Shown: positions 9,734 to 43,032, counted from the stretch's first letter. The stretch is DNA of 64,000 bases from Pseudomonas phage vB_PaeP_TUMS_P10 (OM782452.1), one strand, 5' to 3'. The notes: generated by a model from the letters alone, not told the origin. Numbers and translations are program-made.

Positions 9734-11295
9734 TGCCGCCTATCACTTGGCGTAACATTGGAACCACGGTAAGCCCCGGCAGTGCTCGTTCGCTGACTGC
9801 CGGGACTACTGGTGTCCAATCTGCATTGGCTTCGCTCGGCGATATCATCAAGCAACAGCAAGAGATGGCCGTGGCGAATGCTGGTGTACAGCGTGAAGCC
9901 AACACGCAAAACTACCTGGACCAGGTTGCTTCGGCTGACCTGAGCCAACTCCAAGATCCTGATTTCGTCGCTGGTTTGGCGGGGCAACGTGATGCCATGG
10001 GCATGCGTTTGGACCGTGCCGCAACCCGTGATGCGATCCTCAACCGCAGGCAAGCCCTGCAAAAGGACACTGTTGCTCAACAGGCATTCGCCGATCAGCA
10101 GGCTGAAGTAGATCAGCGGGGAATCGTAGATGAACTACGGACCCTGGCTGCTCAAGGCCGTGGCCGTGATGTAGATGCCATCCTGGCTGAACGTCAGTTG
10201 ATCAACGAGGGCGAGATCCGTAAGGAACTGGCGGGTGTCCAAGACAACCTGATGCAACGTCAGTACCGGGCAGCCGGTGAACAACGTGCTCAGGCTGCTG
10301 CGGACCGTGCTGCTGAAGCTCACCAGTTGTCCATGACTGCTAGTCGGGAGAACTTGGCGTACCAGCGTGATCTGCGTCAGGACGCAGCACGCGAACGGAA
10401 TGACAACAAGCTGGCCGACAGTGCAGTAATGGAGATCTCCAACCAGTTCCGGGAAAGCCGGGAAACGGCCAATGCTCTGTTGCGGGATATCGGCAAAGAG
10501 CAGGGTCTTCCTACTGACGACACTGGTTTGCCGGATGTATCCCGTATGGATCCGGACCAAGAAGCCAGCTACCGAGAGGCAGTTCAGTCCTCTGGTTTGT
10601 CGGCCAACTTGTCGGCGACGAACGAGAAGCAAGCCTTGGTCAAGACCCTACGTGAGTCTGGTGCTTCGCCGTCTGCTATTCAGCGAGCCACGAAGCAACT
10701 GGACATCATGCAAGGCATGGATGCACTGGCACCTGAAGATGCTGTAAAGGCGGAGAACCAGGTGACTGCGGTCAATGCTGAGTTGGATCGAATCCAGAAG
10801 CAGATGACCCGCAACTACGAGACCGAGGTTGCTCGTAACCCGTTCATCGAACCGAGCAAGACTCCGCTGGAAGACGTTACGAAGACGGTGGAGAAACTGG
10901 GCAAAGCTGGTATGCCTGAATCGGAACGGCGTCTGGTTGCGGATACTCTGGTCGAATGGTCCACCAACGGTATGACTACCGATGGCGGTCAAAAGATCGT
11001 AGTTCCTTCCCAGTTGATCGCCGCTGCTGCTGCATCTACCGATGCCGATTCCTGGATCCGGAACGATGCGAAGAGTTACCTCAAGAACCTACAAAGTCTC
11101 TTGGGTAACAAGGGTATGGAGCAAATGGCCAAGGATGCAGATTCCGTGCGGTCGGACTTCCTCAAGGAGATGACCAAACTGGAAAATGACAAACTGGGTA
11201 ATGCCTATAGAGTAATCAACTCGGCAAAGGCCAAAAAGGGTGTTAGTATCAACCCCAATGACACCGTTGATCGATTGCTCAAAAGGAATTTCTGA
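9733..11295 (+). CDS. hypothetical coiled-coil virion protein
   Basis: 520 aa, Q/A/R/E-rich, TAATG overlap with the upstream gene. Confidence 0.45.
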   Translation: MPPITWRNIGTTVSPGSARSLTAGTTGVQSALASLGDIIKQQQEMAVANAGVQREANTQNYLDQVASADLSQLQDPDFVAGLAGQRDAMGMRLDRAATRDAILNRRQALQKDTVAQQAFADQQAEVDQRGIVDELRTLAAQGRGRDVDAILAERQLINEGEIRKELAGVQDNLMQRQYRAAGEQRAQAAADRAAEAHQLSMTASRENLAYQRDLRQDAARERNDNKLADSAVMEISNQFRESRETANALLRDIGKEQGLPTDDTGLPDVSRMDPDQEASYREAVQSSGLSANLSATNEKQALVKTLRESGASPSAIQRATKQLDIMQGMDALAPEDAVKAENQVTAVNAELDRIQKQMTRNYETEVARNPFIEPSKTPLEDVTKTVEKLGKAGMPESERRLVADTLVEWSTNGMTTDGGQKIVVPSQLIAAAAASTDADSWIRNDAKSYLKNLQSLLGNKGMEQMAKDADSVRSDFLKEMTKLENDKLGNAYRVINSAKAKKGVSINPNDTVDRLLKRNF

Positions 11296-14200
11296 TGGCT
11301 GACTTTGATCTCGATTCTTTCCTGGATGCGAGATTGGACGCGGAGGCTGGTACTGCACCAGCCTTCGATCCTTCTGCATTCGCTGATTTTGGCAACACCT
11401 TCCCCATGAAGGGAACCCAAAAGCAGTTCAACATCTACGAGATGGCAGAACAGAAGCGCCGGAACATCGAAGAGTCCTTGGTAGGCAAGCTGGGCATCAC
11501 TCCCGGTGCTACCGGTACTGGCCCAATCAACCTGGCTGCTTCCCTGGCTTCGGGTACTTCCCGTGTAGCCGGTCAACTGGTCAACCTGCCCCTGAACTTC
11601 GCTGCTCAGATGGGTCAAGCTGGTGTTTCCGAAGAAGCCATTCAGGCTTACAACCGGGAGATCACTGGTAACCCGCTGGAAGGTGACGATGCCATCCTGA
11701 ACCAGATCGCTGCTGGTGAAGACGGTGTTCAGCAAACCATGCGTGATCGCCTGATTGGTGTTCAGGGTCTTCGTGACGCCGGTAAGGCAGTACAGGACTT
11801 CTTCGACATCTCTTCGATTGTCGATACCACTGACCGTGACGCCATGAGTCGCGACATTGCTGAGCGTACCCAACAGGGTGTAGCTCTGCTGCGTGAATCT
11901 GGTGACCAACTGGAACGTGGTCAGATCCTGGATGCTCTGCTGTCCGGTGCTGCTGGTGCAACTCAGACCGTAGCCGGTGCTGTTGCTGGCACTGCCACCA
12001 ACCCCTCTGCTGTCACTGAGTACACCGTAGAGAACGCGCCTCAACTGGCAGCTGCTGCTGTGTCGGCACCTCTGGGTGTGGCCACCAACGTGGGCTACGC
12101 CGCTGATGAACTTCGTGAAGGCTATCGCGAATACGCTGAAGCCAACGATGGTCAACTGCCGGACCAAGAAGATCGCCTGAAGATGGGTGCCTTCGCTGCT
12201 TCCCTGGCAATGGCTGAACAAGTCGGCGACCTGAGCATGCTGCGGGGTATCCGTGGTGAGGCTGGTTTGCTCCGCTCGACTCTTTCCTCCAGTGCCCGTG
12301 AAGGTGTAACCGAAGGCTATCAAACCTACGGTGAAGCCCAGGTTCGACTGGACGATGCGAGCATCGAAGAGATCGTAGAAGGTGCAGCCATCGGTGCAGC
12401 TGTCGGTGGTTCCCTGAACATCGCTGGCCGTGCTGTACGTGGTGCATCCGGTGCCAAGTCCAAGGCTGAACAAGCCATCACTGACCGGGAAGCTGTAGCC
12501 ACTGCCCGTGAGACTGGTGACATTGCTGACCTGACCAACATCGAGTCGGAGAACTACAACCCGGCTGGTGCGGTGAGTGTGCTGCATGAGCAAGTCCTGA
12601 AGAACGACACTCCCGAAGTGCGTGAATCTGTCATTGCCCAGGCTGACACCATCGAACAGGAACTGGCTAAGCAGATCTCGGATATCGAAAGTGTCCAGGC
12701 TCTGGCCAGTGAAGAAGGTGTTGCTCGTCTGGTTGCTGCACGGGAACAACGTGAAGCTCAACTGGAACAAGCCACCCCGGAAGAGCGTACTCAGCTGGAA
12801 GCTCAGATCGAGTCGATCCGTAACCTGGAAGAAGAGGCTGCTGCCTACACTCCCGAACTGCGTGCTCAGGATGATGCAGAACTCAAGGATCTGAACCAAC
12901 GTCTGAAGGCTACTCGTGAAGCGATCCAGCGTCTGCATACCGATGCTGCGCCTACTGCTCCCGAGGTAGAAGAACTGGTTGCCCAGGCACCTACTTCTCC
13001 GGAAGCTGCTGAGCGTGTGATCACCCTGACCATGACCAACCCGGACAGTCTGAGCAACGAGCAGATTGCTTCCATAGTTTCGGACGAGTCCAATGGCTTG
13101 TCCCCGGAATACCGCACTGCACTCCGCAGCTTCGCTCAAGCCAAGGAAGCCATGGATGAACTGAAGGGTTTGTCCGGTGTTCGTACCGATATCGAAGTCG
13201 GTGGTGATGGTTTCAAGGGCATCCCTCAATACCGCAATGCTGTGCGTATGGCCCTGTCCAACGGGAACATCGAAGCTGCTACTGCTCAGGTAGACCAGCT
13301 GCGTGCCTTCGCAGATACCCGCCTGTCCAAGTTCGCTGCAATCAGCGATGCCTTCGACAAGGTGCAGGGTACCCAGGACTTCATCAACATCATCCCGAAC
13401 CAGGAAACTGGTGTGTGGGAAGTTGCTCCTGAAGGCATGACTCCCCGTCAGGTTCAGTCGGCCAAAGGGCTGCGTGTATTCGCCGGTTCTCAGAAGCTGC
13501 GTGATGCTGTAGCCATGGAAGCTACTGCCCTGGCACGTACTGCTGAATCCCTGCAAGCACTGATCAACGCCGGTCCTCTGACCAACGCTGTACAGGTTGC
13601 TCAAGAGCAAACCATTGCCCAGGAACAAGAAGTTGCTCCTGTAGCTGAAGAGGTGACCCCGGTAGCAGAGCCTACCGCTCAGGTATCCGAAGAGGCTGTT
13701 GCCCAGGAAGCTGAGACGGTCCAGGCGGAACCTGTTCCCGAGGTCGAAACTGGTGAACTGACTGCAATCCGTGAGGGTGCAGAAGTTCGTGGTAAGCCGC
13801 TGGCAAGCCAGGACTATCAGGACACCAACCTTGTTGGTGCGTTCTTCCAGCAATCGCCGGCCAAGCAAGAAGGTGACACCAAGAAGCCGCTGGCTTCGGT
13901 GAAGGACTTCGCTACTGCTGTCCGTACTGGTTCTGCCAAGCTGGCTGAGTTCGCTGGTGTTGAGTCCTTCACTGGTCAGCAACAGTCTGCCCTGAAGAAC
14001 TTCATGGGCTTCCAGCGTATGGCCAAGCCTCTGGTTGAAGCCAACCTGAAACAGTACGTCTCCAAGTCTGGCGATGCCAGCCGTTATCGTTTCCGGGACT
14101 ATGCTCAGTTCCTGGTGAACGCTGATGGCTCCCTTGATGAGAACGTCAGCACTGCTATCGCCTACGCTGCCTACGATTGGATCAACGATGCAGCTTCCAA

Positions 14201-17200
14201 CCTGGTGAACTCCGATGCAGGCATCAATGCCATTCTCGGTAAAGACGTCAGTGCCGAAGTATCTCCGGCTGCTTACGCTGCTCTGGCCACTGTTGGTGTT
14301 CGTCAGGCAACTGCTGCTGCTCAGCTGGGTGCCAAGGTACGAGAAGTCCTTGGTTTGGAAGTACTCCCCAATGCTCCTGTGAACGAGCAAGCCCGTCTCG
14401 AAGCATCCCTGGGTGAGCATGCTCTGCACCTGCTGGTGAAGAGTGGTGCTGCCAAGATCACCGCTATCAGTGATGCTCAGCTGAAGAACCTGATGGGTTC
14501 CCAGGAGAAGCCCAACGCGAAAGTCCAGCACTACTTCCTGACTCCGGTCAGCGAACGTGTGGACGGCAAGCTCCAGGCTGGTCCGCTGGCTCGCCGTGTG
14601 CGTGAAGCTACCATGGGAAGCCAGTCGATCCTGAACAAGCTGTTCGGTACGACTCCTGCCATGATCGAGCCGAGTTTCGAACCCATCGACTTCAAGCAGC
14701 GTAACGCCAAGCGTACTCAGCAGCCGATTAGTTCGGAGCAAGCACGCATCTTGGATAAGGCCGCGAAGCAAGCTCACACTCTGCGTCCTGAGATGTGGCA
14801 GGTATGGGGTAATCTCAGCCCTGAAGCTCTGGCTACCATTGCTGGTGCTGCCGATCTGGAAGGAACCAAGGTTCACAAGGCAAACCGTGCCGGTCTGCAA
14901 GCCAAGTCGGATGGACTGGTTCGCCAGATTCAGAACTTCGGTGACTTCTTCAACCGAATCAACGAAGTGTCCGATCTGGGTACTGAACAGCCTCTGTACT
15001 TCGACCGCTCTGTATGGAAGCCTCAGCGTGTTGGTTTGACCAGCAACCTGATCAACCCGCAGACCTCGAAGATCCACCGTCACATGCTGAAGATGGAAGG
15101 CTGGGAATCCGAGGTCAAACTCGATTCGAAAGCTGACCTGGACAACTTCAAGCTTCGCGTACTGGAGTCCTTCGGCAAGAAGACTGAAGCCACCAACACC
15201 GACAAGGTACTGGCCAAGTACGATGCTACTGTGAACACCCCGGCAATTCAGGGTGGTGTAGCTGCACTGGCTGAGATCCTCCGTGGTGATGCAAGCGATA
15301 CGGTCGCCAACGAATCGGCGATTCTGGCTGCTGTTGCTGAAGCTGGTGAGAACTTCTTCAGCCTGGATGGTTTGGTAGCTCTGGCTCAAGAGAAGATCGC
15401 CCGTGAAGACGGTGCTGCTTCCTTCAAGACCACTCTGCTGGGTGAAGTGGACGGCGTAACCAACGGTCCGATGCTGTCGCTGCTCATGTCCGGTGCCAAG
15501 GGTTTCGAAACCCTGAACCAGGGTGGCTTCTTTAGCCAGACCGATGGTTTCCAGCAGTTCAACGACTTCCACGCTGAAGCCGGTAACCTGGACCTGTACG
15601 AAGGCACCATCAAAGCTGTCCTGGATATCCTGGGCAACAACCCGCTGCTGTCCGCTATCGAAGCCATCACTGGTGAACTGAGCACGGATGACGGCAACGT
15701 ATCGTCCAAGGGCCGTAAGGTAATCAAGCAGCCCCTGACCGCAATGATGTTTGGTTCGAACACCAAGACTGCGGTAGACGGTATGGCTGATGGCTTCATC
15801 GAAACCATCTACAGCAAGATCGAAGACGCTGCCAATGCCAATGATCTGGACTCTCTGCGTAAGACCATCAATGCTGTAAACCAGCTGATGATCGGCACCA
15901 ATGCACAGAAGTGGCCGACCGACATGGGCTTCGAAGCTGCCCTGGATACCACCTTTGATGCCCGTCAGGTAGCTGCTCTGAAGAACAGCTTCTACCAACT
16001 GCTGGGCAAGAAAGTGGAAGAGGCACTGAACGACACTTATGCTGAGTTCATCAGCCGTCGTGATGTCATCAACAAGACCGCCAACATGGCGTTCCAGATG
16101 TACGAAGCTGCCTTCCAAGCCAAGCGTGAGCAGATGCTGAAGACTGCTGACCTGCCTCGTGGCAAGGATGGCCAGCCGTACACCGACTTGACCCGTGAGC
16201 AAATCGAGCAGATCCGCAAGGAACTGAAGCCGATGGAACCGATCCTGCACACTGCTTTCTCGAAAGCCAGTGGTGAACTGGATGCCGGTATGCTCATGGC
16301 CAAGACCCGTCGTGAACTCAACGACACTCCGCTGTACCGCAGTGAAGTTCACTTCGCTGAACCGCTGGAGTTCCTGGATAGCGACGGTCGCAAACGTGCG
16401 GTCAACTCGATGAAAGCCAGTGGCATGACCACGGTCAACGAAGGTCCGGGTGTAGCTCCGTTCATCACGGCTACCCACGCACTGGACTCCTTCATCAGCC
16501 ACAATGCCTTGGATGGTGCCAGCGTCCTGAACATCCACGATGCTCACGGTACTGGTTTGTCCGACATGGCAGAAGCTGGCCGCCGTCTGAACGAAGCTAC
16601 CTTCAAGGCTATGCTGGGTTACTCGGCTGCAAGCGAGATGGTTGACACCTTCGAACGTACTCTGGCTGGCTTCAACAATCTGATGACCGATCCCGAAGCT
16701 GCTGCTGTCATGGCTCCCATGATGCAGAAGTACCTGGAAAGCCAGAAGGCTACTGTTGGCCAACAGCTGGAAGCGATCCGCCGTGTGGCTGAAGCCGCTG
16801 ACACCGACAAGCTCACCATGCTGAGCGAGATGGCTGCCGTCGGCCAGTACGCTACCGAAGGTGGTAGCTACCTGGTAACCGATGCTGACCGCAAGGCTGC
16901 TCAGGATGCCCTGAAACAGGTAGGCAAGTTCAACGAGGAAGCCGAGATCTGGGCTGAGAACGTTGATGCCAATCTGGAAGTCATGGCTTCGGAAGCCAAG
17001 GCAGGTAAGGCCAAGCCTCTGTCTTCGGATTCCGTCCAGACTCTGGCTCCGGCTACCAGCCTGAACACCATGGACCGCGTTATCCGCGAATCCAATGGCC
17101 AGCTGCGGGAAGACCTCCAGCAGGTAGCTTCGGTCATGGAAAACCAGAACATTCCTCTGGCTTCGGCCAAAGAAGTTCTTCCGGAAGACCGTGCAGCTGC

Positions 17201-20200
17201 TGTGGTGGCCACCATCAATGAAAGCACCCGTAGCCTGAAGTCGGTATGGGGCGAACTCGGTCAGGCTGTAACTCCTTCGGAGCAAGACCTCGTTGAGTTC
17301 CTGTCGAGCGAAGGTGTGACTGCACGCAACCTGTCCCAGTACCTGGAGCAACGTACCCAGGATGGCTTCACCAAGAAGCTACTGGCTGCCCTGAGCCGAC
17401 TGACCCGTGAAGATCTGCCGGTGATTATAGTCACCCCCCAGACCGGTCCGGACGGTGCGCTGGGAGAAGGCGTGAGCAAAGCACGCGGTTGGTATGCAAG
17501 TAAGGGCAACTTCGACGCTATCTACGTCAAGTCCCCTGACTTCGTGGAGTCGGGTATCACTGAAGAGTTTCTGGTTCATGAACTGCTCCATACCGTTACT
17601 GGTCGGGTGATTCAACGTGAACTGGATGCCAAGGCCAAAGACCCGAGCCACAACACTGCTGCAAGCCGCATGGTTGACGAACTGGAAGAGATTCGTTCGA
17701 AGGCTCAGGACTTCCTGAATGCCAATGGAACTCTGTCTTCGAAGTACGCCAATGCTGTGCAGGACGTACACGAACTGGTTTCCTGGGGTATGACCAACAA
17801 GGGTTTCCAAGAGGAAGTTCTGAAGGGTCTGGAACTCCCGGCCAAGGGACGTGACAAGGGCTTCACTGCTGGTCTGCGTCGCTTCATCAGTGCCCTTACT
17901 GGTTTGGTCTTCCGTGGTGAGAACACCCCGTCGAATCAGAACGCCATGGGTCTGCTTATCAGCAATACCGCTGGTTTGTTCGCCGAAGCTCAAGCCATGA
18001 TGGCCAAGAAGGACACCATGACTCTGCGTTACGAAGATGCCGTAGACAGCGTGAACCGCATGTCCACCAAGCAAATCTTCAATGCACTGGCTTCGAACCG
18101 GGACAGCAGTGTTGCTCACCAGAACCGTCTGGCTGATGCCCTGGACAACATTGTTGCGGCCCTACATGGACCGATGGGTGCCCTGCGTACTCGCGTCATG
18201 GAAGGCCAGGCTCTGACCAACACCGATGTTGTGATCAAAGCCATGAACACCAACACCATGCCGTTTGCATCGGAAGCTCTGTCGTCCGCCTTCGTGGTCA
18301 GCGATCAAGAAGCCTTCGTGCTGGAGCAGGTAGAGGCCACCATCGACACCGCTCTGAACGGTAACGAGGGTCTGTTCATCCGTGGTTCTCTGGAGAACCT
18401 GTGGCGTGAGGCTCGCGATACCCTGTCGGCTCGTGACTTCCACCAGGGTGACTGGACTCAAGCCAGCCAGCAGGAGAAGGCCATTGCTCAAGAGAAGTAC
18501 GACTTCCTGTTCAAGGTCCAGGCATCTGCTGCTGGTAAGAACAGCTTCCTGGCTCGCTTTGCTGGTTTGGCCATCGGCAGTGAAGAAGTGTTCAATGCCC
18601 TGGGCTTCCGATCGAAGAGCACTGAGCGTGCGCTTGCTGGCATGACCCTAAGCCAGAAGGTGATGGAACTGTTCCGTCGTCTGCTGACCCGTCTGGGCCG
18701 TCTGCACGACAAGACCTCTCCGGGTGAACTGGCGAACAACCGCTTGGTTACCCTGCTGGATCGTCTGGTCGATATCGAGGCTAAGCGTCGTGGTCGGTTT
18801 GCCGAGCGCAAGCTGGGTGCCCTGGATCAAGTCGAACAAGCCATGGGTAACATGGGTGAGTCCCTGCGGAACACCATAGAGCAAGCCTCGCAGAGCACCT
18901 TCTTCACGAACAACAACAGCCCGTTCATCCGTGCTGCTGGTTCGCTGATTGAGACGACCATGGCTGGTCGTGTGGATGGTGTACTGGAAGGCATCAGCCG
19001 ACTGCGTGACGATGCATTCCGTAAGCCGCGTGGTGTGCTTATGGGTGTGCTGGATGAGATGCGTGGCGTCACCGATCTGATGACTGCTGCACACAGCCTG
19101 TTCAAGCAAGCCAAGTCCAACGAGATGGAGCGTAAGCAGCACATCGAGTACACCGTTGCTCAGGTGAACGCTTCCTTCAAGGATGGCGGTGAGTACCTGA
19201 CCAACAAGGACAAGGCTGCACTGACCAAGGTATTCCTGCGGACCAACATGTCTGCACTGCTGGATACCTATGGTTTCGACGGTCTGCGTCAACTGCTGAA
19301 CAACGACAGTGAACTGCGTAAAGAGCGCAGCCAGCTGGAGACTCAGTTGCTTGGTTTGAAGAACGGTGCCTACTACCTTCGCTCGGTGAAGGATCTAGCC
19401 TACAACCGTGCTATCGGCGGTAACGTAAGCCCGAACCTGATGCTGAACACTCAGAACATTGCTGATCTGATTGGGACCAAGAAGGCTCTGTCGGTCAGCA
19501 AGTCTGAAGCCAAGGCTGCCAAGGAAGTAATGGATCTCCTGTTGCCGATGTTTACCTTCGAGTACACCAGTCATGAAGACAAGGTTGCTGCTCGTGAGGT
19601 TCTGCGTACTGAAGCTGCACGCGGAAAGGACAACGGCGTAGAGATGATCCTGAAGCTGCACAAAGGTCTGCAAGATCGTTCGAAGTCCTTCCTGTTCGAA
19701 GGTACTGAGCGTCTGATGATCGATGGCTACACCCCTGACATCTTCGACAACAAGATCGAAGTGCTGGCAGTGGATGCAACCGATCTGGACTACTTCCTGA
19801 AGCGTGGTTACACCCGTGCAGGTAACGTCCAAGAAGACAAAGCAGCTGGTCTGTCCGCTGGTAAGGTACTGGTATCCCGCCGTGGTAGTGGTCAGGTAGG
19901 TTTGCTGACTGGTGCTATGAGCTACACCGGTATGCAAGCCAAGGGTTCCCGTGTTGAGCGCTCTGCTGTGAACATGCTGAGCAACAATCCGGGTACTGCG
20001 AAGAACACCATCGGAACCATCCGCAAGAACATTGCAGACTCGGTTGATGAGATGTTCACCACCGATGCTACCTACGATCCGCGTAAAGCACAGGCACAAC
20101 GTGTTGCTCCTGTACTGGATCCGAATGGAATCATTGTTGATTACCGGTACATGATGACTGAGCACAACCGTGACAGTCTCCTGAACCGCGACAACTCCAT

Positions 20201-21506
20201 GGACCAGGTACTGGGTACTCTGGCTGGTCAGATCGTGGACAAGGTGTCTTCGCATCAGCAGAACGTGGACGTAGTTCGTTCCATGTACGAGCAGTTCCGT
20301 GAGGACTACTCCAACCGCCCGAGCAGCTACATCAAAGTAGGCAAGGACAGCACTGAACCTCACTTGCAGGAACTCTACAACCTGTTGCCCTATGCAACTA
20401 AGCGTGAGATCCGCAATGTGTGGAAGTCGGACAACATGATGATCCCGGCTGACCAACTGAACATGATCATGGGTTACCGTAAGGCATCCGTAACTGGTCC
20501 GTTTGGTTTGGATCCGCAGGAACGTAACGTTGCCCAGCAGGTTCTGGTAACTGTAGCTGAAGCAATCCTGGGTCCGAAGGCTGCACTGCGTCTTGGCCGT
20601 GCTGAAGACGTGATTCAGGAACTGGTACGTGAAGCCAAGGACATTCTGGTTGTGAAGAACATCTTCACTCTGGTGGGCAACATCGTATCGAACATGACGT
20701 TGCTGGCTTGGAGCGGTGTTGGTATTGCCGATGCAGTACGTGCGCATGCAACTGGCATTAAGGGTGCCTTGCAGTATCGGGCAGACAACAAGCGTCTGAT
20801 CCAACTGGTGCAAGCCAAGGAAATTGGGTATGTGCCGGAAGGCGTTGCGTCGATTGACGATGAGATTGTTGTGCTGCGTGATCGCATTGCACGTAACCCC
20901 ATCAAGCCGTTGATTGACGCTGGTCTGATGCCGACCATTGTGGAAGACGTTGAAGCTGATGACAGTCAATACAGCTACAAGTCTTTGCTGCAACAGAAGA
21001 CCGAACGAGTAACCAGTAAGCTTCCGAAACTGGTGCGTGATGCGGCTAAGTTCGTGTACGTGGCTCATGACACGTCCATGTACAAGTTCCTGTCGCAAAC
21101 CACTCAGCTGAGTGACTTGGTTGCCCGTTACACTCTGTACGAGCATCTGATCAACCGCGCTCGTGATCCGCTGAGCAAGGCTGATGCACTGAAGCAAGCA
21201 GAAGAAAGCTTCGTGAATTACGACATCCCATCCCATCGGATGGTCCAGTATCTCAACGACACTGGTTTGTTGATGTTCACCAAGTACTATCTGCGGATTC
21301 AGAAGGTGATTGCACGACTGGTCAAAGAGAAGCCTGCCCGTGGTCTGGCACTGGTAGTGGCCAACCATTTCGTCAGTGGTTTGCAATCTGTGATGGACAG
21401 CAGCTGGATTAACCGGATTGGGCACAACCCATTCCAGAGTGGTCCGTTTGCTTTCCCGAGCAGTCTGAGTGAACTGCCTGCGATCAAAGGTTTGTTCAAC
21501 CTTTAA
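11295..21506 (+). CDS. virion-encapsidated RNA polymerase (N4 gp50-like vRNAP)
   Basis: 3403-aa single ORF. Central region carries T7-like motif B (RKVIKQPLTAMMFGS, ~nt 15715) and motif C (NIHDAHGT, ~nt 16531). AAGGAA RBS. Giant size and position match N4-like vRNAP. Confidence 0.85.
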   Translation: MADFDLDSFLDARLDAEAGTAPAFDPSAFADFGNTFPMKGTQKQFNIYEMAEQKRRNIEESLVGKLGITPGATGTGPINLAASLASGTSRVAGQLVNLPLNFAAQMGQAGVSEEAIQAYNREITGNPLEGDDAILNQIAAGEDGVQQTMRDRLIGVQGLRDAGKAVQDFFDISSIVDTTDRDAMSRDIAERTQQGVALLRESGDQLERGQILDALLSGAAGATQTVAGAVAGTATNPSAVTEYTVENAPQLAAAAVSAPLGVATNVGYAADELREGYREYAEANDGQLPDQEDRLKMGAFAASLAMAEQVGDLSMLRGIRGEAGLLRSTLSSSAREGVTEGYQTYGEAQVRLDDASIEEIVEGAAIGAAVGGSLNIAGRAVRGASGAKSKAEQAITDREAVATARETGDIADLTNIESENYNPAGAVSVLHEQVLKNDTPEVRESVIAQADTIEQELAKQISDIESVQALASEEGVARLVAAREQREAQLEQATPEERTQLEAQIESIRNLEEEAAAYTPELRAQDDAELKDLNQRLKATREAIQRLHTDAAPTAPEVEELVAQAPTSPEAAERVITLTMTNPDSLSNEQIASIVSDESNGLSPEYRTALRSFAQAKEAMDELKGLSGVRTDIEVGGDGFKGIPQYRNAVRMALSNGNIEAATAQVDQLRAFADTRLSKFAAISDAFDKVQGTQDFINIIPNQETGVWEVAPEGMTPRQVQSAKGLRVFAGSQKLRDAVAMEATALARTAESLQALINAGPLTNAVQVAQEQTIAQEQEVAPVAEEVTPVAEPTAQVSEEAVAQEAETVQAEPVPEVETGELTAIREGAEVRGKPLASQDYQDTNLVGAFFQQSPAKQEGDTKKPLASVKDFATAVRTGSAKLAEFAGVESFTGQQQSALKNFMGFQRMAKPLVEANLKQYVSKSGDASRYRFRDYAQFLVNADGSLDENVSTAIAYAAYDWINDAASNLVNSDAGINAILGKDVSAEVSPAAYAALATVGVRQATAAAQLGAKVREVLGLEVLPNAPVNEQARLEASLGEHALHLLVKSGAAKITAISDAQLKNLMGSQEKPNAKVQHYFLTPVSERVDGKLQAGPLARRVREATMGSQSILNKLFGTTPAMIEPSFEPIDFKQRNAKRTQQPISSEQARILDKAAKQAHTLRPEMWQVWGNLSPEALATIAGAADLEGTKVHKANRAGLQAKSDGLVRQIQNFGDFFNRINEVSDLGTEQPLYFDRSVWKPQRVGLTSNLINPQTSKIHRHMLKMEGWESEVKLDSKADLDNFKLRVLESFGKKTEATNTDKVLAKYDATVNTPAIQGGVAALAEILRGDASDTVANESAILAAVAEAGENFFSLDGLVALAQEKIAREDGAASFKTTLLGEVDGVTNGPMLSLLMSGAKGFETLNQGGFFSQTDGFQQFNDFHAEAGNLDLYEGTIKAVLDILGNNPLLSAIEAITGELSTDDGNVSSKGRKVIKQPLTAMMFGSNTKTAVDGMADGFIETIYSKIEDAANANDLDSLRKTINAVNQLMIGTNAQKWPTDMGFEAALDTTFDARQVAALKNSFYQLLGKKVEEALNDTYAEFISRRDVINKTANMAFQMYEAAFQAKREQMLKTADLPRGKDGQPYTDLTREQIEQIRKELKPMEPILHTAFSKASGELDAGMLMAKTRRELNDTPLYRSEVHFAEPLEFLDSDGRKRAVNSMKASGMTTVNEGPGVAPFITATHALDSFISHNALDGASVLNIHDAHGTGLSDMAEAGRRLNEATFKAMLGYSAASEMVDTFERTLAGFNNLMTDPEAAAVMAPMMQKYLESQKATVGQQLEAIRRVAEAADTDKLTMLSEMAAVGQYATEGGSYLVTDADRKAAQDALKQVGKFNEEAEIWAENVDANLEVMASEAKAGKAKPLSSDSVQTLAPATSLNTMDRVIRESNGQLREDLQQVASVMENQNIPLASAKEVLPEDRAAAVVATINESTRSLKSVWGELGQAVTPSEQDLVEFLSSEGVTARNLSQYLEQRTQDGFTKKLLAALSRLTREDLPVIIVTPQTGPDGALGEGVSKARGWYASKGNFDAIYVKSPDFVESGITEEFLVHELLHTVTGRVIQRELDAKAKDPSHNTAASRMVDELEEIRSKAQDFLNANGTLSSKYANAVQDVHELVSWGMTNKGFQEEVLKGLELPAKGRDKGFTAGLRRFISALTGLVFRGENTPSNQNAMGLLISNTAGLFAEAQAMMAKKDTMTLRYEDAVDSVNRMSTKQIFNALASNRDSSVAHQNRLADALDNIVAALHGPMGALRTRVMEGQALTNTDVVIKAMNTNTMPFASEALSSAFVVSDQEAFVLEQVEATIDTALNGNEGLFIRGSLENLWREARDTLSARDFHQGDWTQASQQEKAIAQEKYDFLFKVQASAAGKNSFLARFAGLAIGSEEVFNALGFRSKSTERALAGMTLSQKVMELFRRLLTRLGRLHDKTSPGELANNRLVTLLDRLVDIEAKRRGRFAERKLGALDQVEQAMGNMGESLRNTIEQASQSTFFTNNNSPFIRAAGSLIETTMAGRVDGVLEGISRLRDDAFRKPRGVLMGVLDEMRGVTDLMTAAHSLFKQAKSNEMERKQHIEYTVAQVNASFKDGGEYLTNKDKAALTKVFLRTNMSALLDTYGFDGLRQLLNNDSELRKERSQLETQLLGLKNGAYYLRSVKDLAYNRAIGGNVSPNLMLNTQNIADLIGTKKALSVSKSEAKAAKEVMDLLLPMFTFEYTSHEDKVAAREVLRTEAARGKDNGVEMILKLHKGLQDRSKSFLFEGTERLMIDGYTPDIFDNKIEVLAVDATDLDYFLKRGYTRAGNVQEDKAAGLSAGKVLVSRRGSGQVGLLTGAMSYTGMQAKGSRVERSAVNMLSNNPGTAKNTIGTIRKNIADSVDEMFTTDATYDPRKAQAQRVAPVLDPNGIIVDYRYMMTEHNRDSLLNRDNSMDQVLGTLAGQIVDKVSSHQQNVDVVRSMYEQFREDYSNRPSSYIKVGKDSTEPHLQELYNLLPYATKREIRNVWKSDNMMIPADQLNMIMGYRKASVTGPFGLDPQERNVAQQVLVTVAEAILGPKAALRLGRAEDVIQELVREAKDILVVKNIFTLVGNIVSNMTLLAWSGVGIADAVRAHATGIKGALQYRADNKRLIQLVQAKEIGYVPEGVASIDDEIVVLRDRIARNPIKPLIDAGLMPTIVEDVEADDSQYSYKSLLQQKTERVTSKLPKLVRDAAKFVYVAHDTSMYKFLSQTTQLSDLVARYTLYEHLINRARDPLSKADALKQAEESFVNYDIPSHRMVQYLNDTGLLMFTKYYLRIQKVIARLVKEKPARGLALVVANHFVSGLQSVMDSSWINRIGHNPFQSGPFAFPSSLSELPAIKGLFNL

Positions 21507-21512
21507 AGAAGA

Positions 21513-21540
21513 AGGGGAGCTAATGCTCCCCTTTCTTTTT
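21513..21540. terminator. bidirectional intrinsic terminator between convergent vRNAP and minus-strand block
   Basis: AGGGGAGC-TAAT-GCTCCCCT hairpin with a T-rich run on both strands. Confidence 0.75.
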
Positions 21541-21717
21541 GAATGCGTTTGCCAGGATCTCCCAGAAGAGGACTCCTATCAAACAGAGGACTATGGCTAC
21601 TGCAAACAGGAATCCAATGATCCTGAAGACCCATGAGGCAACGTAAACGACGAATGCCCCTCCTACGATCATGCCGAAGAAGAGGCAGACGCCGACGAAT
21701 ACCTTTAGGGCATCCAT
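21520..21717 (-). CDS. small membrane protein
   Basis: 65 aa with two hydrophobic helices, AGGAGG RBS. Confidence 0.5.
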   Translation of the reverse strand: MDALKVFVGVCLFFGMIVGGAFVVYVASWVFRIIGFLFAVAIVLCLIGVLFWEILANAFKKKGEH

Positions 21718-21729
21718 CGGGCCTCCTGG

Positions 21730-22074
21730 TTAACGCTGAGCCATGAGTGGCATGCCTTGCTGCATCACTTCCATCATGTGCCCCTGGTCGCCGGCAGCGG
21801 ATGCACGGGACATGAGGAACGGGATGTTGAGGTTCTGCGGGTAGTGACCGATGTCACTGCGGCAGAGGATGCCGCCCGGCATGGAGAAGGCGTAGTAGTA
21901 GGGCAGTTCGTGGGCCAGGCAAGCCTTGTCCAGTTTCTCCAGAAGTTCGGTGACTTCCTGCGGCAACTGGTTGGGGAATTCCAGGTTCGCACGGGTGTGC
22001 TGCTTCTTGTCCACGGCGATAGCCTGGACAACATCACCTACGCCGAAACGGTCATGGGGCAGACGATCACTCAC
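21730..22074 (-). CDS. hypothetical protein
   Basis: 114-aa ORF. GTG start at 22074 with a weak RBS, so the start is uncertain. Confidence 0.35.
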   Translation of the reverse strand: MSDRLPHDRFGVGDVVQAIAVDKKQHTRANLEFPNQLPQEVTELLEKLDKACLAHELPYYYAFSMPGGILCRSDIGHYPQNLNIPFLMSRASAAGDQGHMMEVMQQGMPLMAQR

Positions 22075-22267
22075 TGGCTTTACTCGTCACTTCTTTCAGG
22101 TGATCGACGACCAGGGTGGTGTCCATCTTGGCGACTTCGACCAGGCCGGCGGTGATGGCGTCGAGGGCGGTTTCCATGTTCTTGCGGCTAATGCCGCTCA
22201 GACTGCCGTTGGTCAGGATGTTGGCCAGACTCTGGGCGGATTCCAAGAGTGCATTGGTATGTTCCAT
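22067..22267 (-). CDS. hypothetical protein (start re-assigned)
   Basis: The ORF-track start at 22396 lies inside a 12-bp stem hairpin. AAGGAG sits 7 nt before the ATG at 22267, giving a 66-aa product. Confidence 0.45.
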   Translation of the reverse strand: MEHTNALLESAQSLANILTNGSLSGISRKNMETALDAITAGLVEVAKMDTTLVVDHLKEVTSKASE

Positions 22268-22304
22268 GGGGAACTCCTTGGTTTGAATATTTCGGGGTAA
22301 GGGT

Positions 22305-22669
22305 GGAGTGCTCTGGTCTGGACCCCGTTGCGGGGCGTGGGGAGGACCGTTCACAACGGGCCAGAGCACTCCCTTATGTCTACGAAACATAGACATAAGA
22401 AAGCCAGCATGAAGCTGGCTATCTTGAAAGGGTGGGTGAACTCAGAGGCTAGGAGACAGGAAGTTCTACGAGGGGATTCCTCTGGTTCACCATTGACTGT
22501 GGCTGTATGTCGTTGGTTGTTGCTGTGTGTGATCACTATGCTATCTATGGCACTGCAAGTCAACAGTAAAAAGAGTCCTACAAGCCAAACCATTACGAGA
22601 ACTGGCTAAAAAGAGAATGAGTTCAGGGAACTCTTGTAGGACTAAGGCTAGGTATTCACTCTTTTTACT
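22305..22669. other. hairpin-dense noncoding region (five long perfect or near-perfect stems): candidate RNA processing/regulatory or structured RNA
   Basis: Stems: 22305-22316/22361-22372 (12 bp, enclosing two 5-bp/3-nt-loop mini-hairpins); 22373-22399 (10-bp palindrome); 22402-22420 (7 bp); 22435-22491 (13 bp with 1-nt bulge); 22565-22584/22633-22669 (12+8 bp). Confidence 0.5.
22381..22420 (-). terminator. terminator-like hairpin on minus strand
   Basis: On the minus strand, AGCCAGC-UUCAU-GCUGGCU is followed by UUCUUAUGUCUAUGUUU. Confidence 0.4.
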
Positions 22670-23063
22670 GGGGACTCAAGTCCTGGGGAGGATCTTGGTT
22701 TTCACGCATGCTGGAACCAGCAATGCGACCATTGCGGAAGTCCACCGCATCTACCGAGTTTTCGGGATACGGATTTTCGCCTTGTTCCCCCAGGAGGCCG
22801 ACACGTACACCGTGCAGGTAGGCAGCCGTGGCATCCATACCGGGACGGTAGGGGGGATTGAACTCCGCATCTGTGGAGAGGCCGAGTTCGGATACGGCCA
22901 GCAGGATTGCGTCTTGGTGGACACCGCCTTTGACCTTGATTTCTGCGATCAGCGGAGCGGTGAAGCCAATGACTACATCCTTGGCTGAGTAGACCGTGGA
23001 GGTGAACTGGAGGCCGCCACCGGTGTGGGTAACGAAGGACAGCAGGTATCGATTTTTCTTCAT
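22665..23063 (-). CDS. hypothetical protein
   Basis: 132 aa, AGGGGA RBS. Confidence 0.5.
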   Translation of the reverse strand: MKKNRYLLSFVTHTGGGLQFTSTVYSAKDVVIGFTAPLIAEIKVKGGVHQDAILLAVSELGLSTDAEFNPPYRPGMDATAAYLHGVRVGLLGEQGENPYPENSVDAVDFRNGRIAGSSMRENQDPPQDLSPQ

Positions 23064-23083
23064 GGTTTCCCCTTGGGAAGAAC

Positions 23084-23101
23084 CCCCGGCGAACCGGGGG
23101 C
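23084..23101 (-). other. intergenic GC hairpin with UUCG loop (attenuator/terminator-like)
   Basis: CCCCCGG-CGAA-CCGGGGG on the plus strand; the minus-strand loop reads UUCG. Confidence 0.4.
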
Positions 23102-23108
23102 GTGTCGC

Positions 23109-23498
23109 TTAACCGCCGAACAGGCCGGCTGCCGACTTGGGCGCTTCTTGTGCGGGTGCTTCAGCTTGAGCCGGGATCTCCTCGACCGGATTGGCTTCCG
23201 GTTCGGCGGAGGTTGCCGGTGCAGCCTGCGCCTCGGAGGCGGCCTTGAAGTTGCCCAGGTCTTCGGTGACGACTTTCTTCTCGCGCTTCGGCTTTTCGAC
23301 CGGAACTTCTTTCGCCGCCGGTGCTTCTTCGGCGACTGCCGGCTCTTCGCCCAGCGAAACTTCGGCGGTGACGTTGCTGCCGCCCTTGCGGGTGACCGAG
23401 AAGGAGACGTGGGTGTTGGCATCTACCGGCAGGCCACGAGCGGCCAGACCGTCGGTCAGCATCTTGACGATATCGTTTTGGTTCAGAGTGATGATCAT
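23109..23498 (-). CDS. hypothetical protein with A/P/E/K-rich C-terminal tail ending ...PKSAAGLFGG
   Basis: 129 aa, AAGGAA RBS. Compact N-terminal domain followed by a low-complexity tail. Confidence 0.5.
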   Translation of the reverse strand: MIITLNQNDIVKMLTDGLAARGLPVDANTHVSFSVTRKGGSNVTAEVSLGEEPAVAEEAPAAKEVPVEKPKREKKVVTEDLGNFKAASEAQAAPATSAEPEANPVEEIPAQAEAPAQEAPKSAAGLFGG

Positions 23499-23508
23499 GG
23501 ATCGTTCC

Positions 23509-24063
23509 TTATGAGAGCAGCTTGAGCAGCTGCTGGAAAGTGGGGTCTTTCAAGCCAACCTCAGCAGCGGCAATAGCATCTGCTATGTGCTCTGCTTTGC
23601 TGGCGACTACCCGTCCGTTCTGTCGAGGCCAGTTCAGTCCGGGGTGTTTCTTCGTGGCCCACTCAATCATTTCCTGCTTGCTGGCCGTTGATGAATTGCA
23701 CGCATGCACCTTCAGCTTGGCAGCAGTGACAGGAAAGAATGGGTAGCCCAGCGCACGCATGTACGCCAGTAGGCCAATGCACACGCCGTAGCTCTTCATA
23801 GCGTCAGCCGATTGGGAACCAACGGGGACTTCTACGAAGATGGCTTTGGCATGGGGAGCAAGTTCAATCAGACGCTCGGCAATCGGCTCGACACGTAGGA
23901 GGTCTGCCGAGTTGACGCGAATCTGCTTGTCCTTGCTTTTACTGGTTTGGATGACCTCGACATGCTTGAACTCAATCAAGCCAGTGGAGGTATCCAGGTT
24001 GCCGCAGGCTATGCCCCAATTACTGAGGCTGGGATCCATGCCCAAGATGTTGATCTTAGGCAT
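23509..24063 (-). CDS. RuvC-like Holliday junction resolvase
   Basis: N-terminal INILGMDPSLSNWGIA resembles the RuvC catalytic Asp region. C-terminal HIADAIAAAE resembles the RuvC HxxDAxxIA motif. 184 aa. Confidence 0.55.
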   Translation of the reverse strand: MPKINILGMDPSLSNWGIACGNLDTSTGLIEFKHVEVIQTSKSKDKQIRVNSADLLRVEPIAERLIELAPHAKAIFVEVPVGSQSADAMKSYGVCIGLLAYMRALGYPFFPVTAAKLKVHACNSSTASKQEMIEWATKKHPGLNWPRQNGRVVASKAEHIADAIAAAEVGLKDPTFQQLLKLLS

Positions 24064-40534: not shown

Positions 40535-43032
40535 TGCTTACTCCTTTTCAGCATGTTTTGAAGCATATGGAAGGTTTCTTCCTTCGTTTCCGCCTGCTTG
40601 AGGAACTTGGTGGTCGAGTTCGAGCAAAGCAGGTTGAACATTGGGTAGTCCTTGATCAAGGTCACCAACTCCCGAACCTTTGTAGAAGGCGAGGCGGTAT
40701 CCAAGAACTCACAAGCACTCTCCAACTCCTTGTGGGCAGTGGAATACCGACGCAGGCTATCCCGATAGACACACAGCAGTTTCCATTTAGCCAACAACTC
40801 CGGAGACAGTTCCGTCTTGAAGCCGAGTGCAGTCCTCCACTCATTGGTTTCGAGAAGGTACTTGCAGATGTTGAACCCGGAATTGTACTCATCGTCCGGT
40901 TCGAATACCCGCTGAGCCGCTGCCCACGAAGAACCCATGTACTTCAACAGGATCTTCTTGTTGGTACGCACGAACTTCAGCATCTCCGCGTGTACATACT
41001 CCTCCAGGGTAGGCAGGCCCATGGCGACGAATTTCTTCTCGTCATGGATGCTGTGGGCGACTGCAACCCGGTCACCCCATACCTTCAGGACATGAACAGC
41101 AACCGCAGCGCGGAAACCAGGAAGTTCAGTCCGGGCATGGTAGGTGTTGGACTTGGAGAAGAGGTACGAGAAGGCCACGGGATTGTCAGTACGGTGTTCT
41201 GTACCGGTCTTGGCCAACTCCTGGCTGAAGTAGTCAGAAGCACGGGCGGTACTCAGGGTAGCGTAGCCGTCCATCTTCACCTTCTTGGCTTTGACCCGTT
41301 CAGCAGGCGGGATGTACTCGATTTCCTTGGTCAGGTCGAGGACAGCAACGTTCTCCAACGAATTGAAGTGGTTGCGGACCTCGGCCAAGGTCTTCGCACT
41401 ACGGGGAGTCACATACGTGAAGAAGTGAGTACGAACCCCCTTCTTGAAGTAATCCCCGTGCAGCGGGTGCTTGGCGATGCGTTCTTCGACGTTCTTGCTG
41501 CTGTGGGTGAGAACCACGATCCGTTCCTGGAAAGCATACAGAAGCAACGGCTGGATCGGATGGAACTCGGGAAGTGCAGTAGTACACAGCCAGTCCGAGT
41601 TATTAGCGATGGTAGTCATCTCCCGCAGGTGGGTAATAACGAACCGACGGGACTGCACCGGACCCATGAGCATGTCCTTCATGAAGATCTTGCGGAAGGC
41701 AGCAGACACATAGCTTCGGATGCTGTCAGCAGGACGCTCTGGCGGGCACTTGCGGTGCAGTCGAATCAGTTGACCCAGGAGAACCTGGTCTACATCCGGG
41801 CACTTGCGAAGCATACTCAACCGGTTAACCCGATCCTTGACCAGAATGGACTTTCCATTGGGCAGGCGCTTCACGACATCCGGACCCCGGAACGAGAAGA
41901 GCCAGAGGGCATGACCGGCTGCTGTGAGGATGGTATCCCCGATGATGTCCCCTGGTTTCAGGAACTCGTTCAGGGAAGCCTGGTTTACAGCAGAGAGGAC
42001 ACCTTGTTGCATGAGCCGGCTCCACTGCTCACAAGCCAATGCCTGCTCGTTGTTGTGCTTCAGCACCTGCAACATGGCCGCGTTGAGGTTGTGCTTCATG
42101 TAGGAGTCGAACTTCTCCAACAAACTATGAAGAGTCTTCTTGGTTGTGGGAACCATCGAGAGGGATTCCCGGCTGGGAGTCACTTCAATGGTGTTCGGCT
42201 GAGCCTTCAGCACCAGCACGGAGGTGTAGTCACCGGACAGGCGAATCCAGTCCTTGCAATCCTCGTACAGGTGCTCATAGTCCTCGTGATCCGCAACCGG
42301 GTAGATCACGTTGCCATACAGTACACAGATGGCGCCGGGCAAGTTGTCCGCGTACTGACCGCGAGCAATGAGGAAGCCGTTCTTGGCTTCTTCGATGGGT
42401 AAGGTAGGAACTACCTGACCGGAGATCTCCGCCAGCATGCCGCCATTGCGGATAACCCGGCGTGCGTTGTTCAGCATGGTATTCCGGCTTACCTGGTTTC
42501 CATCCAAGGGGATGGACACCTTCAGTCCTGGATTGTCGCAAGGAATGGAAAGCATCGGAGTGATGGTCGGCAAGCCATTACGCTCAGCGGAAGACTTGCT
42601 GATTCGGTAGATGGTACGGATACCCCCGTTGGAGGATTCCACCTGGAAAGAATCTACCAGGGCGAAGGGAGACTTACAGCCCAGGCCGAAGCCACCGGTG
42701 ACTTCCGAGTTCTTCTGCTTGGTGGAACCACCCAGGGTTCCATAGTGGTCGCCCATCTTGTCCTTGGGGATGCCCTTACCGAAGTCTTCTACGACGAACT
42801 CATTGTCCTCGGAGAAGTAGACCTTGATCGGCGTGTGCTTATTCCCCGCTTCGATGTGGGCATCCCAGGCGTTGCACAGGACTTCACGTACTACAGCCAT
42901 GGGCTTATCGGAGTACAAGGTATCCGACAGCATGTGGAAGAAGGCCGCGTCAGCATTGACCTTCATCTGGATCTTTTCTTCGCCGCCAATGACAGCATGA
43001 GTGATCCGATCACTCGTATGAGTTACTTGCAT
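40510..43032 (-). CDS. rIIA-like protein with GHKL/HATPase_c domain
   Basis: N-box REVLCNAWDA and G-rich boxes in the first ~150 aa. 840 aa. AAGGAG RBS. Confidence 0.6.
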   Translation of the reverse strand: MQVTHTSDRITHAVIGGEEKIQMKVNADAAFFHMLSDTLYSDKPMAVVREVLCNAWDAHIEAGNKHTPIKVYFSEDNEFVVEDFGKGIPKDKMGDHYGTLGGSTKQKNSEVTGGFGLGCKSPFALVDSFQVESSNGGIRTIYRISKSSAERNGLPTITPMLSIPCDNPGLKVSIPLDGNQVSRNTMLNNARRVIRNGGMLAEISGQVVPTLPIEEAKNGFLIARGQYADNLPGAICVLYGNVIYPVADHEDYEHLYEDCKDWIRLSGDYTSVLVLKAQPNTIEVTPSRESLSMVPTTKKTLHSLLEKFDSYMKHNLNAAMLQVLKHNNEQALACEQWSRLMQQGVLSAVNQASLNEFLKPGDIIGDTILTAAGHALWLFSFRGPDVVKRLPNGKSILVKDRVNRLSMLRKCPDVDQVLLGQLIRLHRKCPPERPADSIRSYVSAAFRKIFMKDMLMGPVQSRRFVITHLREMTTIANNSDWLCTTALPEFHPIQPLLLYAFQERIVVLTHSSKNVEERIAKHPLHGDYFKKGVRTHFFTYVTPRSAKTLAEVRNHFNSLENVAVLDLTKEIEYIPPAERVKAKKVKMDGYATLSTARASDYFSQELAKTGTEHRTDNPVAFSYLFSKSNTYHARTELPGFRAAVAVHVLKVWGDRVAVAHSIHDEKKFVAMGLPTLEEYVHAEMLKFVRTNKKILLKYMGSSWAAAQRVFEPDDEYNSGFNICKYLLETNEWRTALGFKTELSPELLAKWKLLCVYRDSLRRYSTAHKELESACEFLDTASPSTKVRELVTLIKDYPMFNLLCSNSTTKFLKQAETKEETFHMLQNMLKRSKQCQKKSAS

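Follow-up and report, generated by a model that had tools for sequence, protein, structure and literature searches.

A non-coding transcription unit in Pseudomonas phage vB_PaeP_TUMS_P10 that probably corresponds to the small-RNA hotspot of phage LUZ7

In Pseudomonas phage LUZ7, the intergenic region between orf69 and orf70 was described by ONT-cappable-seq as a "transcription hotspot" of late infection (Putzeys et al. 2022, PMC9163698). Three abundant small RNAs (sRNA1-3) arise there: two have a common start and different terminators, and the third, sRNA3, has no start of its own, for which the authors suggested processing as the origin (PMC9163698). Here, we analysed the homologous gap in Pseudomonas phage vB_PaeP_TUMS_P10 (OM782452.1), in a stretch of 64,000 nucleotides (nt) that we refer to as the window. 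The gap (22268-22669, 400 nt) is 96.8% identical to the LUZ7 orf69-orf70 intergenic region over 401 nt, and its flanking genes and RNA are on the minus strand. Its surroundings are 99% identical to Pseudomonas phages KPP21, PJNP053, Ka3/Ka4 and PA152 and 90% identical to LUZ7 (1.4 kb), which by sequence places the source phage among the KPP21/LUZ7-type N4-like podoviruses (Schitoviridae, Migulavirinae, Luzseptimavirus). The locus is thus already known as a LUZ7-type small-RNA hotspot. We read the gap, with a probability of roughly 0.8, as a compact non-coding transcription unit on the minus strand that is the KPP21-type copy of this hotspot.

The published data define the LUZ7 locus in detail. 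The late start PL13 at 42780 on the plus strand is a primary, cap-enriched transcription start with a sigma70-like upstream region, and at 16,210 reads per million (RPM) it is the strongest late start, the next one reaching 3,851 (PMC9163698). The 3' end T46 lies at 42741, 98 nt past orf69, with a termination efficiency of 0.87 at 10 min and 0.60 at 20 min. T47 (42911) is predicted as an intrinsic terminator by TransTermHP and ARNold and has an efficiency of 0.57-0.59, and T48 (43010) is without an intrinsic prediction and rises in efficiency from 0.44 to 0.88 from 10 to 20 min (PMC9163698). From the one start run the transcription units (TUs) TU55 (42780-42911, 'sRNA2') and TU56 (42780-43010, 'sRNA1') and the read-through units TU57 (orf70-71) and TU58 (orf70-72) (PMC9163698). 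A LUZ7 fragment with T47 was among the nine strongest in a terminator trap in E. coli, P. putida and P. aeruginosa (PMC10204088).

We took the LUZ7 ends, starts and units from the supplementary tables of Putzeys et al. (bioRxiv version; Tables S2 and S4 among them) and carried the positions over to the window by pairwise alignment. On the minus strand, the T46 end maps to 22568, the start to 22529, the T47 end to 22398 and the T48 end to 22299. LUZ7 has the same promoter hexamers and the same stems in its terminator hairpins, and the T47 loop differs by one base. The promoter, the start, the three 3' ends and the read-through units are therefore assigned by homology to experiments, and the structure, strand, non-coding nature and conservation were computed here. 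With the LUZ7 locus, the present one has in common its position between homologous genes, its promoter, the hairpins of T46, T47 and T48 and the entire RNA body; the differences are that the present species is of KPP21 type and that there are few substitutions, including two compensatory pairs in the T46 stem. The published LUZ7 work contains no structure, conservation analysis or function for the RNAs, and our literature search found no later paper that gives RNA from the LUZ7 locus a function. We consider this anatomy of the locus to be probable. Its elements are listed below in the direction of transcription.

22568-22676, minus strand: terminator module of the orf64-69 operon and homolog of LUZ7 T46, from inverted repeats and the mapped 3' end at 22568
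22574-22584 / 22633-22643, minus strand: perfect 11-base-pair (bp) part of a composite stem, within a clamp formed by 22558-22576 / 22658-22676
22588-22603, minus strand: 16-nt motif AGUUCUCGUAAUGGUU, within the apical part of the T46 hairpin in the orf69 3' untranslated region, from an alignment of 13 phages
22535-22563, minus strand: sigma70-type late promoter, PL13 homolog, with -35 box TTGACT (22563-22558), 17-nt spacer and -10 box CATAGT (22540-22535)
22529, minus strand: transcription start site, placed by homology to LUZ7 42780
22426-22528, minus strand: variable 5' body of the small RNA, from fold and base composition
about 22435-22491, minus strand: 13-bp stem with one bulged A
22398-22425, minus strand: intrinsic terminator, T47 homolog, AGCCAGC-uucau-GCUGGCU followed by UUCUU
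22397-22408 / 22414-22425, minus strand: 12-nt arms, 92% complementary with one mismatch, containing the perfect 7-bp core AGCCAGC/GCTGGCT
22299-22397, minus strand: conserved 3' domain, a 10-11-bp hairpin (22373-22399) abutting a 12-bp stem, up to the end homologous to LUZ7 T48
22373-22382 / 22390-22399, minus strand: perfect 10-bp palindrome, from an inverted-repeat check
22305-22316 / 22361-22372, minus strand: perfect 12-bp stem that encloses CCGTT-gtg-AACGG and CCCCG-caa-CGGGG (sense strand)
22268-22298, minus strand: spacer with the orf70 ribosome-binding site AAGGAG (22273-22278)

The preliminary description of this DNA had drawn attention to a gap packed with hairpins, and all of the stems that it described are found where it placed them. 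One of them, a 13-bp stem, has a candidate in the sequence but is ambiguous, as it may refer either to the interrupted arms at 22397-22425 or to the bulged-A stem at about 22435-22491. The U-rich run that was said to follow one stem on the minus strand is present after two (GCTGGCTTTCTT and GGACTCTTTTT). Folded as sense-strand RNA, 22299-22529 reaches -88.2 kcal/mol against -56.5 +/- 4.2 kcal/mol in dinucleotide shuffles (z = -7.6, none of 200 shuffles being as stable). For the whole gap, z is -6.2, for the T46 module -3.7 and for the antisense (plus) strand only -4.0. The amount of structure in the gap is far above chance. At the RNA level, the strand is minus, as the promoter and the U-tracts lie there, the fold is much better there, and two pairing-compatible substitutions pair only there. 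A mapped role can be given to most stems: the composite stem terminates the upstream operon, the stem with the 7-bp core serves as intrinsic terminator for the short RNA, and the bulged 13-bp stem forms the core of the short-RNA body. The 12-bp junction stands directly before the 3' end of the long RNA, and the hairpin of the 10-bp palindrome, at which no LUZ7 end has been mapped, abuts it on the 5' side in the same domain.

The upstream terminator combines an A-tract/U-tract clamp (22658-22676 / 22558-22576; 19 nt, 89% complementary), which overlaps the orf69 stop codon, with the 11-bp stem and the U-run CUCUUUUU behind it, and thus has the form of an intrinsic terminator on the transcribed strand. 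Its stem carries compensatory changes, reading GUCCUAC/GUAGGAC in the window, GUCCUGU/ACAGGAC in LUZ7 and GUCCGCU/GGCGGAC in phages of the genus Litunavirus. By this comparison, the T46 stem evolves as an ordinary structure-only element. While the main stem covaries, the U-run, the -35 box and the 16-nt apical motif are invariant, the motif being identical in both genera; no site complementary to it is found elsewhere in the 64-kb window. Directly behind the terminator follows the promoter, whose sequence is identical to the upstream region of LUZ7 PL13. A consensus scan of 22000-23200 returned it as the single promoter-like site, on the minus strand.

The T47 homolog forms, by homology, the 3' end of an RNA of about 131 nt (LUZ7 TU55, 'sRNA2'). 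A terminator scan of the window picks this hairpin on the minus strand, and with a 7-bp stem that contains five G-C pairs and is followed by UUCUUAU it has the form of an intrinsic terminator. The stem is invariant in 10 distinct sequences. Upstream of it, the predicted fold of the 5' body comprises a single-stranded 5' end of about 37 nt, a bulged hairpin and a C-rich linker. The first 37 nt (17 A, 14 C, 4 G and 2 U) are rich in A and C and poor in G, and the hairpin (22435-22491) consists of 7 bp, a bulged A and 6 bp below a pyrimidine-rich apical loop of 30 nt. Litunavirus phages have another sequence with the same plan (7 bp, a bulged A, 4 bp and a 30-nt loop), and compensatory changes also occur in this central hairpin of the 5' body. 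With its single-stranded 5' end, pyrimidine-rich loop and terminator hairpin, the fast-evolving 5' body would have the plan of a base-pairing small RNA. The longer RNA of about 230 nt (LUZ7 TU56, 'sRNA1') maps to a 3' end at 22299, 6 nt past the 12-bp stem. No U-run follows this stem and the end lacks the form of an intrinsic terminator. As there is no U-tract and the stem 6 nt upstream is very stable, we read the end at 22299 as exonuclease-protected or factor-dependent. Judged from its composition, the G-poor, C/A-rich 5' part of the RNA would suit Rho loading.

Hairpins between same-strand cistrons of a phage are also a feature of the T7 early region, where the RNase III sites are roughly two-turn irregular duplexes. 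The preliminary description had likened the present stems to such sites. In this reading, a polycistronic orf64-72 transcript would be cut at the stems into stable messenger RNAs (mRNAs). Perfect stems are indeed present between same-strand genes, and with no linker between them, the 10-11-bp hairpin and the 12-bp stem could form a stack of about two helical turns. However, the stems of the gap measure 7-13 bp, the longest single ones being 12-13 bp, and are mostly perfect, whereas an irregular duplex of about two turns (at least about 20 bp) with an internal loop is not found. The mapped LUZ7 ends lie 3' of the stems rather than within them (after the U-tract at T46 and T47, and 6 nt past the 12-bp stem at T48). 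The main RNAs are primary transcripts that begin at the cap-enriched start PL13 behind a sigma70 promoter, and the isolated LUZ7 T47 fragment acts as a terminator in a reporter. We therefore regard RNase III sites of the T7 type as improbable here. Processing, as its discoverers suggested, may still be the source of the third LUZ7 RNA that has no start. The alternatives that the preliminary description had listed, a structured non-coding RNA and tandem terminators or attenuators, are supported.

Besides the LUZ7-type phages, all 72 Litunavirus-type records (LIT1, PEV2 and others) contain a recognisable counterpart of the gap, and a search of 50,697 phage records returned no further one. The Litunavirus gap has the same order of elements, namely a terminator, a TTGACT -35 box, an RNA body with a bulged hairpin, a T47 hairpin and a near-identical 3' domain. 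It differs in the 5' body, in its -10 box (TAAGTT) and in an unrelated downstream gene. The PEV2 record annotates an open reading frame (ORF) in the homologous stretch as 'very strongly transcriptionally expressed'. Comparison of the window with LIT1, element by element, gave the following identities.

T46 module: 64% nucleotide identity
promoter region, from the -35 box to the start site: 46% nucleotide identity
RNA 5' body: 39% nucleotide identity
T47 hairpin and U-tract: 75% nucleotide identity
3' domain, 22299-22397: 82% nucleotide identity
orf69: 61% nucleotide and 56% amino-acid identity
orf70: 45% nucleotide identity and no detectable protein homology
orf71: 45% nucleotide and 29% amino-acid identity

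This modular pattern of conservation is not in the papers that we found on the locus and is the contribution of the present analysis. In the 3' domain, 33 of the 40 modelled pairs are invariant, and the loops and junction strands have diverged. The local first hairpin of the junction is kept in both genera with a shifted register. The frozen sequence of the stems between T47 and T48 suggests purifying selection on the sequence as well as on the fold. A recent transfer of the block between the genera is disfavoured, as it would have kept the loops too. At the orf70 slot, the 66-amino-acid product of the window and LIT1 gp68 (78 amino acids; L014 968-1204) occupy the same place without detectable homology, and a gene appears, by sequence comparison, to have been replaced beside a frozen RNA element.

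The same comparison bears on a coding reading of the gap, in which it would specify small proteins or extend orf70 at the N terminus, as annotated in some GenBank records. An ATG at 22396 opens a frame that is continuous with orf70, and several Litunavirus genomes also keep the equivalent frame open. The two genera, however, read the conserved nucleotide block in different frames and obtain unrelated peptides from it, and the loops contain indels of 1-2 nt. In phage phPLST, the extension meets a stop and the ATG of the Litunavirus mini-ORF is ACG. The starts sit within stable stems, and the preliminary description had rightly called ORF starts of this kind implausible. We give a coding function almost no weight. 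Gap ORFs are annotated in GenBank as PEV2 gp67.1 and gp67 (L002 2591-2752 and 2768-2956), vB_Pae575P-3_67 and phPLST_18, and annotated ORFs or N-terminal extensions in the homologous gap include L017 826-1188 and L020 872-1204. These annotations cross the terminator hairpin or the conserved RNA domain and do not keep their frame; on sequence grounds they are probably mis-annotations.

The most serious rival is a pure cis-acting leader. Here, the gap would be the long 5' untranslated leader of a late orf70-72 mRNA, T47 and T48 would be attenuators and the short RNAs would be inert by-products. TU57 and TU58 of LUZ7 begin at the small-RNA start, termination is partial at T47 (0.57-0.59) and at T48 (0.44 rising to 0.88 from 10 to 20 min), and the 3' domain ends about 20 nt ahead of the orf70 ribosome-binding site, all of which would be expected of a leader. 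On the other hand, the 3' domain with its frozen stems is 82% identical between the genera, although the gene just downstream is non-homologous and orf71 only 29% identical. If the domain were a simple attenuator, its stems could covary like the T46 stem. The strength of the promoter is four times that of any other late promoter, yet, by arithmetic from the 20-min efficiencies, only about 5% of transcripts pass both stops. A conserved anti-terminator pairing was not found. We consider the pure leader possible, although on balance unlikely.

The invariance of the stems could also reflect selection on the DNA. Were the palindromes to extrude as hairpins or cruciforms, for example to serve the virion or middle RNA polymerase as N4-type hairpin promoters, or to bind a protein or take part in replication, both arms would be expected to stay frozen rather than covary. 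Both mini-hairpins within the 12-bp stem have the geometry of N4-type promoters, with a 5-bp stem and a 3-nt loop. Their loops read GUG and CAA, or CAC and TTG on the opposite strand, whereas the early and middle hairpin promoters of LUZ7 all have loops of T-N-C type, with a G start 13-15 nt downstream (Table S2, PMC9163698). The sizes of stem and loop thus fit an N4-type promoter, but the loop sequence and the start do not, and no early or middle start was mapped in the LUZ7 gap. The only two substitutions in the 3' domain that preserve pairing are A-to-G and C-to-U changes that turn U-A into U.G and G-C into G.U on the sense strand; on the other strand they produce A.C mismatches, so that pairing is kept only in the sense-strand RNA. 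GC skew is featureless at the gap, and a covariance model of T47 and the 3' domain found no second copy in the window. A DNA-level element is very improbable.

Our preferred reading remains a transcription unit whose RNA matters. The composite hairpin with its U-run would end the middle-phase orf64-69 operon. From the near-consensus host sigma70 promoter directly behind it, host RNA polymerase would start at 22529 late in infection. About half of the transcripts would stop at T47 and give the RNA of about 131 nt. The remainder would cross the very stable 100-nt domain, and most of these would end 6 nt behind it and give the RNA of about 230 nt. A few percent would read on as late orf70-72 mRNA. 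We infer that selection acts on the RNA itself as the product. Its 3' domain, frozen in sequence, probably works by way of a protein or a second RNA that recognises this sequence, and not as a mere terminator. This reading is supported by invariant stems and diverged loops across two genera whose neighbouring genes are at 29-56% amino-acid identity or replaced; a terminator or stability element would not need such a combination. That the RNA acts in trans is a tentative proposal, at odds clearly below even. More doubtful still is that the 3' domain represents a new class of structured phage RNA whose partner recognises its sequence; such an RNA might, for instance, act late in infection as a decoy that engages a nuclease, a defence sensor or an RNA-binding protein of the host. 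In that case, the variable 5' body and the terminator ahead of the domain would only dose the amount of it that is made.

Several points weigh against this reading. The ends and timing of the RNAs of this phage are transferred wholly from the LUZ7 data. Transcripts from the same start reach orf70-72 in LUZ7, and the small RNAs could thus be by-products of an attenuated leader. The 5' body, which is the obvious place for a 'seed', is only 39% identical between the genera. A search by k-mers found no complementarity of at least 13 nt between the RNA and the rest of the 64-kb phage window. A conserved seed with complementary targets, as expected of a base-pairing small RNA, is thus not seen, and a mismatch-tolerant search with two invariant RNA motifs found no complementary site in the phage. 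Within the 3' domain, the 12-bp stem may close a three-way junction with the two 5-bp mini-hairpins or, alternatively, an extended helix; the predicted energies are -46.4 kcal/mol with the two mini-hairpins and -54.0 kcal/mol for the extended helix, and both are possible. No pair of the domain has changed on both sides, and its modelled fold rests on thermodynamics and two G.U-compatible changes.

In comparison with classical terminator-ended small RNAs, such as Hfq-dependent small RNAs and lambda OOP, the short RNA likewise has a promoter of its own and measures about 130 nt. Its 5' part is single-stranded, hairpins follow within it, and an intrinsic terminator with a U tail closes it. Unlike these, the locus has no conserved seed or identified target, and its strongest conservation is found past the terminator, an unusual place for this group. 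The preliminary description had proposed an Rfam/Infernal search together with a covariation analysis. Rfam, searched over 2 kb and over the gap alone, returned no relevant family and no match close to a gathering score (the best match in the gap, to an unrelated long non-coding RNA model, had 15.9 bits and E = 2.4), and covariation is present in the T46 stem and the 5'-body hairpin but absent from the 3' domain. Two further candidates were considered and rejected. Mimicry of CRISPR repeats (an RNA anti-CRISPR) gave only chance-level matches of 8-9 nt in an informal comparison, by eye, with the P. aeruginosa I-C, I-E and I-F repeats. For a hammerhead-type ribozyme, the cores were absent from the junction strands by eye and Rfam was negative.

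The element seems to be narrowly distributed. The paired-arm pattern of the 12-bp stem was found in IMG/VR only in the known phages and in one uncultivated Litunavirus-like contig, and had no match in genome or metagenome collections (JGI metagenomes and 185,579 species genomes). Searches anchored on the orf69 protein, alone or as an alignment of the two genera, recovered the same phages from IMG/VR and, from metagenomes, a single truncated contig of Litunavirus-like type, and tBLASTn found the orf69 gene only in the same 81 records. No third lineage of the element was found in IMG/VR, the JGI metagenomes or the 185,579 species genomes. From the sequences searched, it is apparently confined to two genera of Migulavirinae that infect P. 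aeruginosa. Two records named 'Photobacterium phage TEMp-D1/D2' (PP852687.1 and PP852688.1, host Photobacterium damselae) match at this locus like ordinary Litunavirus genomes from P. aeruginosa phages, and their host label looks odd.

Other N4-like phages have clusters of transfer RNA (tRNA) genes at the corresponding slot, which lies between the gp46/47-like genes and the gene of the virion RNA polymerase, as listed below.

5831-6510 of L026: tRNA cluster at the slot in phage N4
7185-7596 of L024: tRNA cluster at the slot in Littlefix
5728-5961 of L025: tRNA cluster at the slot in Ebordelon

In N4, the slot contains four tRNAs (Asn, Ser, Thr and Pro) in a 1.5-kb stretch without a gene in the feature table. 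The small-RNA locus of the Migulavirinae resembles these clusters in being a set of non-coding RNA genes at the same genomic slot, and differs from them in having neither a tRNA fold nor a sequence relation. A degenerate tRNA or a tRNA-like relic, with the 3' domain as a decayed or mimicking tRNA, would fit this position, and the domain, at 68 nt, is enclosed by a long stem with ACCC behind it. Against a tRNA origin, the Rfam tRNA model was negative and ARAGORN found no tRNA or transfer-messenger RNA in the whole 64-kb window. The loops have 3 nt instead of 7, and the ACC tail is not kept in Litunavirus (AUCC, AACC and AUAC). The covariance model of T47 and the 3' domain finds nothing in the tRNA regions of other phages, nor at the syntenic slot of N4, Littlefix, Ebordelon and Achromobacter phage Axy13. 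We hold a tRNA relic to be highly improbable.

The genes around the gap are arranged as in LUZ7. As the preliminary description had proposed, same-strand genes flank the gap: 22665-23063 (minus strand) is the orf69 homolog and 22067-22267 (minus strand) the orf70 homolog, which encodes 66 amino acids from an ATG at 22267 and is followed downstream by orf71 and orf72. For all four homologs (orf69-orf72), PHROGs returned only families of unknown function and Pfam gave no significant match. The orf68 homolog (23109-23498, minus strand) encodes 129 amino acids with a low-complexity C-terminal half rich in alanine, glutamate and proline. It has a weak PHROG match to part of a RusA-like resolvase family (E = 1.8e-4) and adjoins a RuvC/RNase H-like gp46 homolog at 23509-24063. 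The ORF at 11295-21506 on the plus strand (3,403 amino acids) is the virion RNA polymerase. Between this gene and the convergent orf72 lies a hairpin (AAAGGGGAGC-atta-GCTCCCCTTCTT, 21507-21545), the homolog of LUZ7 T50, which was published as a strong bidirectional terminator. The hairpin also gave a weak partial Rfam match to PrrB/RsmZ (23.6 bits) that covers only the 3'-terminal part of the model.

Our analysis leaves the identity of the locus as published and provides exact coordinates for its elements, and several GenBank ORF calls within it are flagged as probably spurious. The strongest late promoter of LUZ7-type phages lies in this locus, and such phages find use in phage-therapy work against Pseudomonas aeruginosa. 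The conservation pattern narrows the likely function of the hotspot to a 100-nt domain that is conserved across two genera, independent of the downstream gene.

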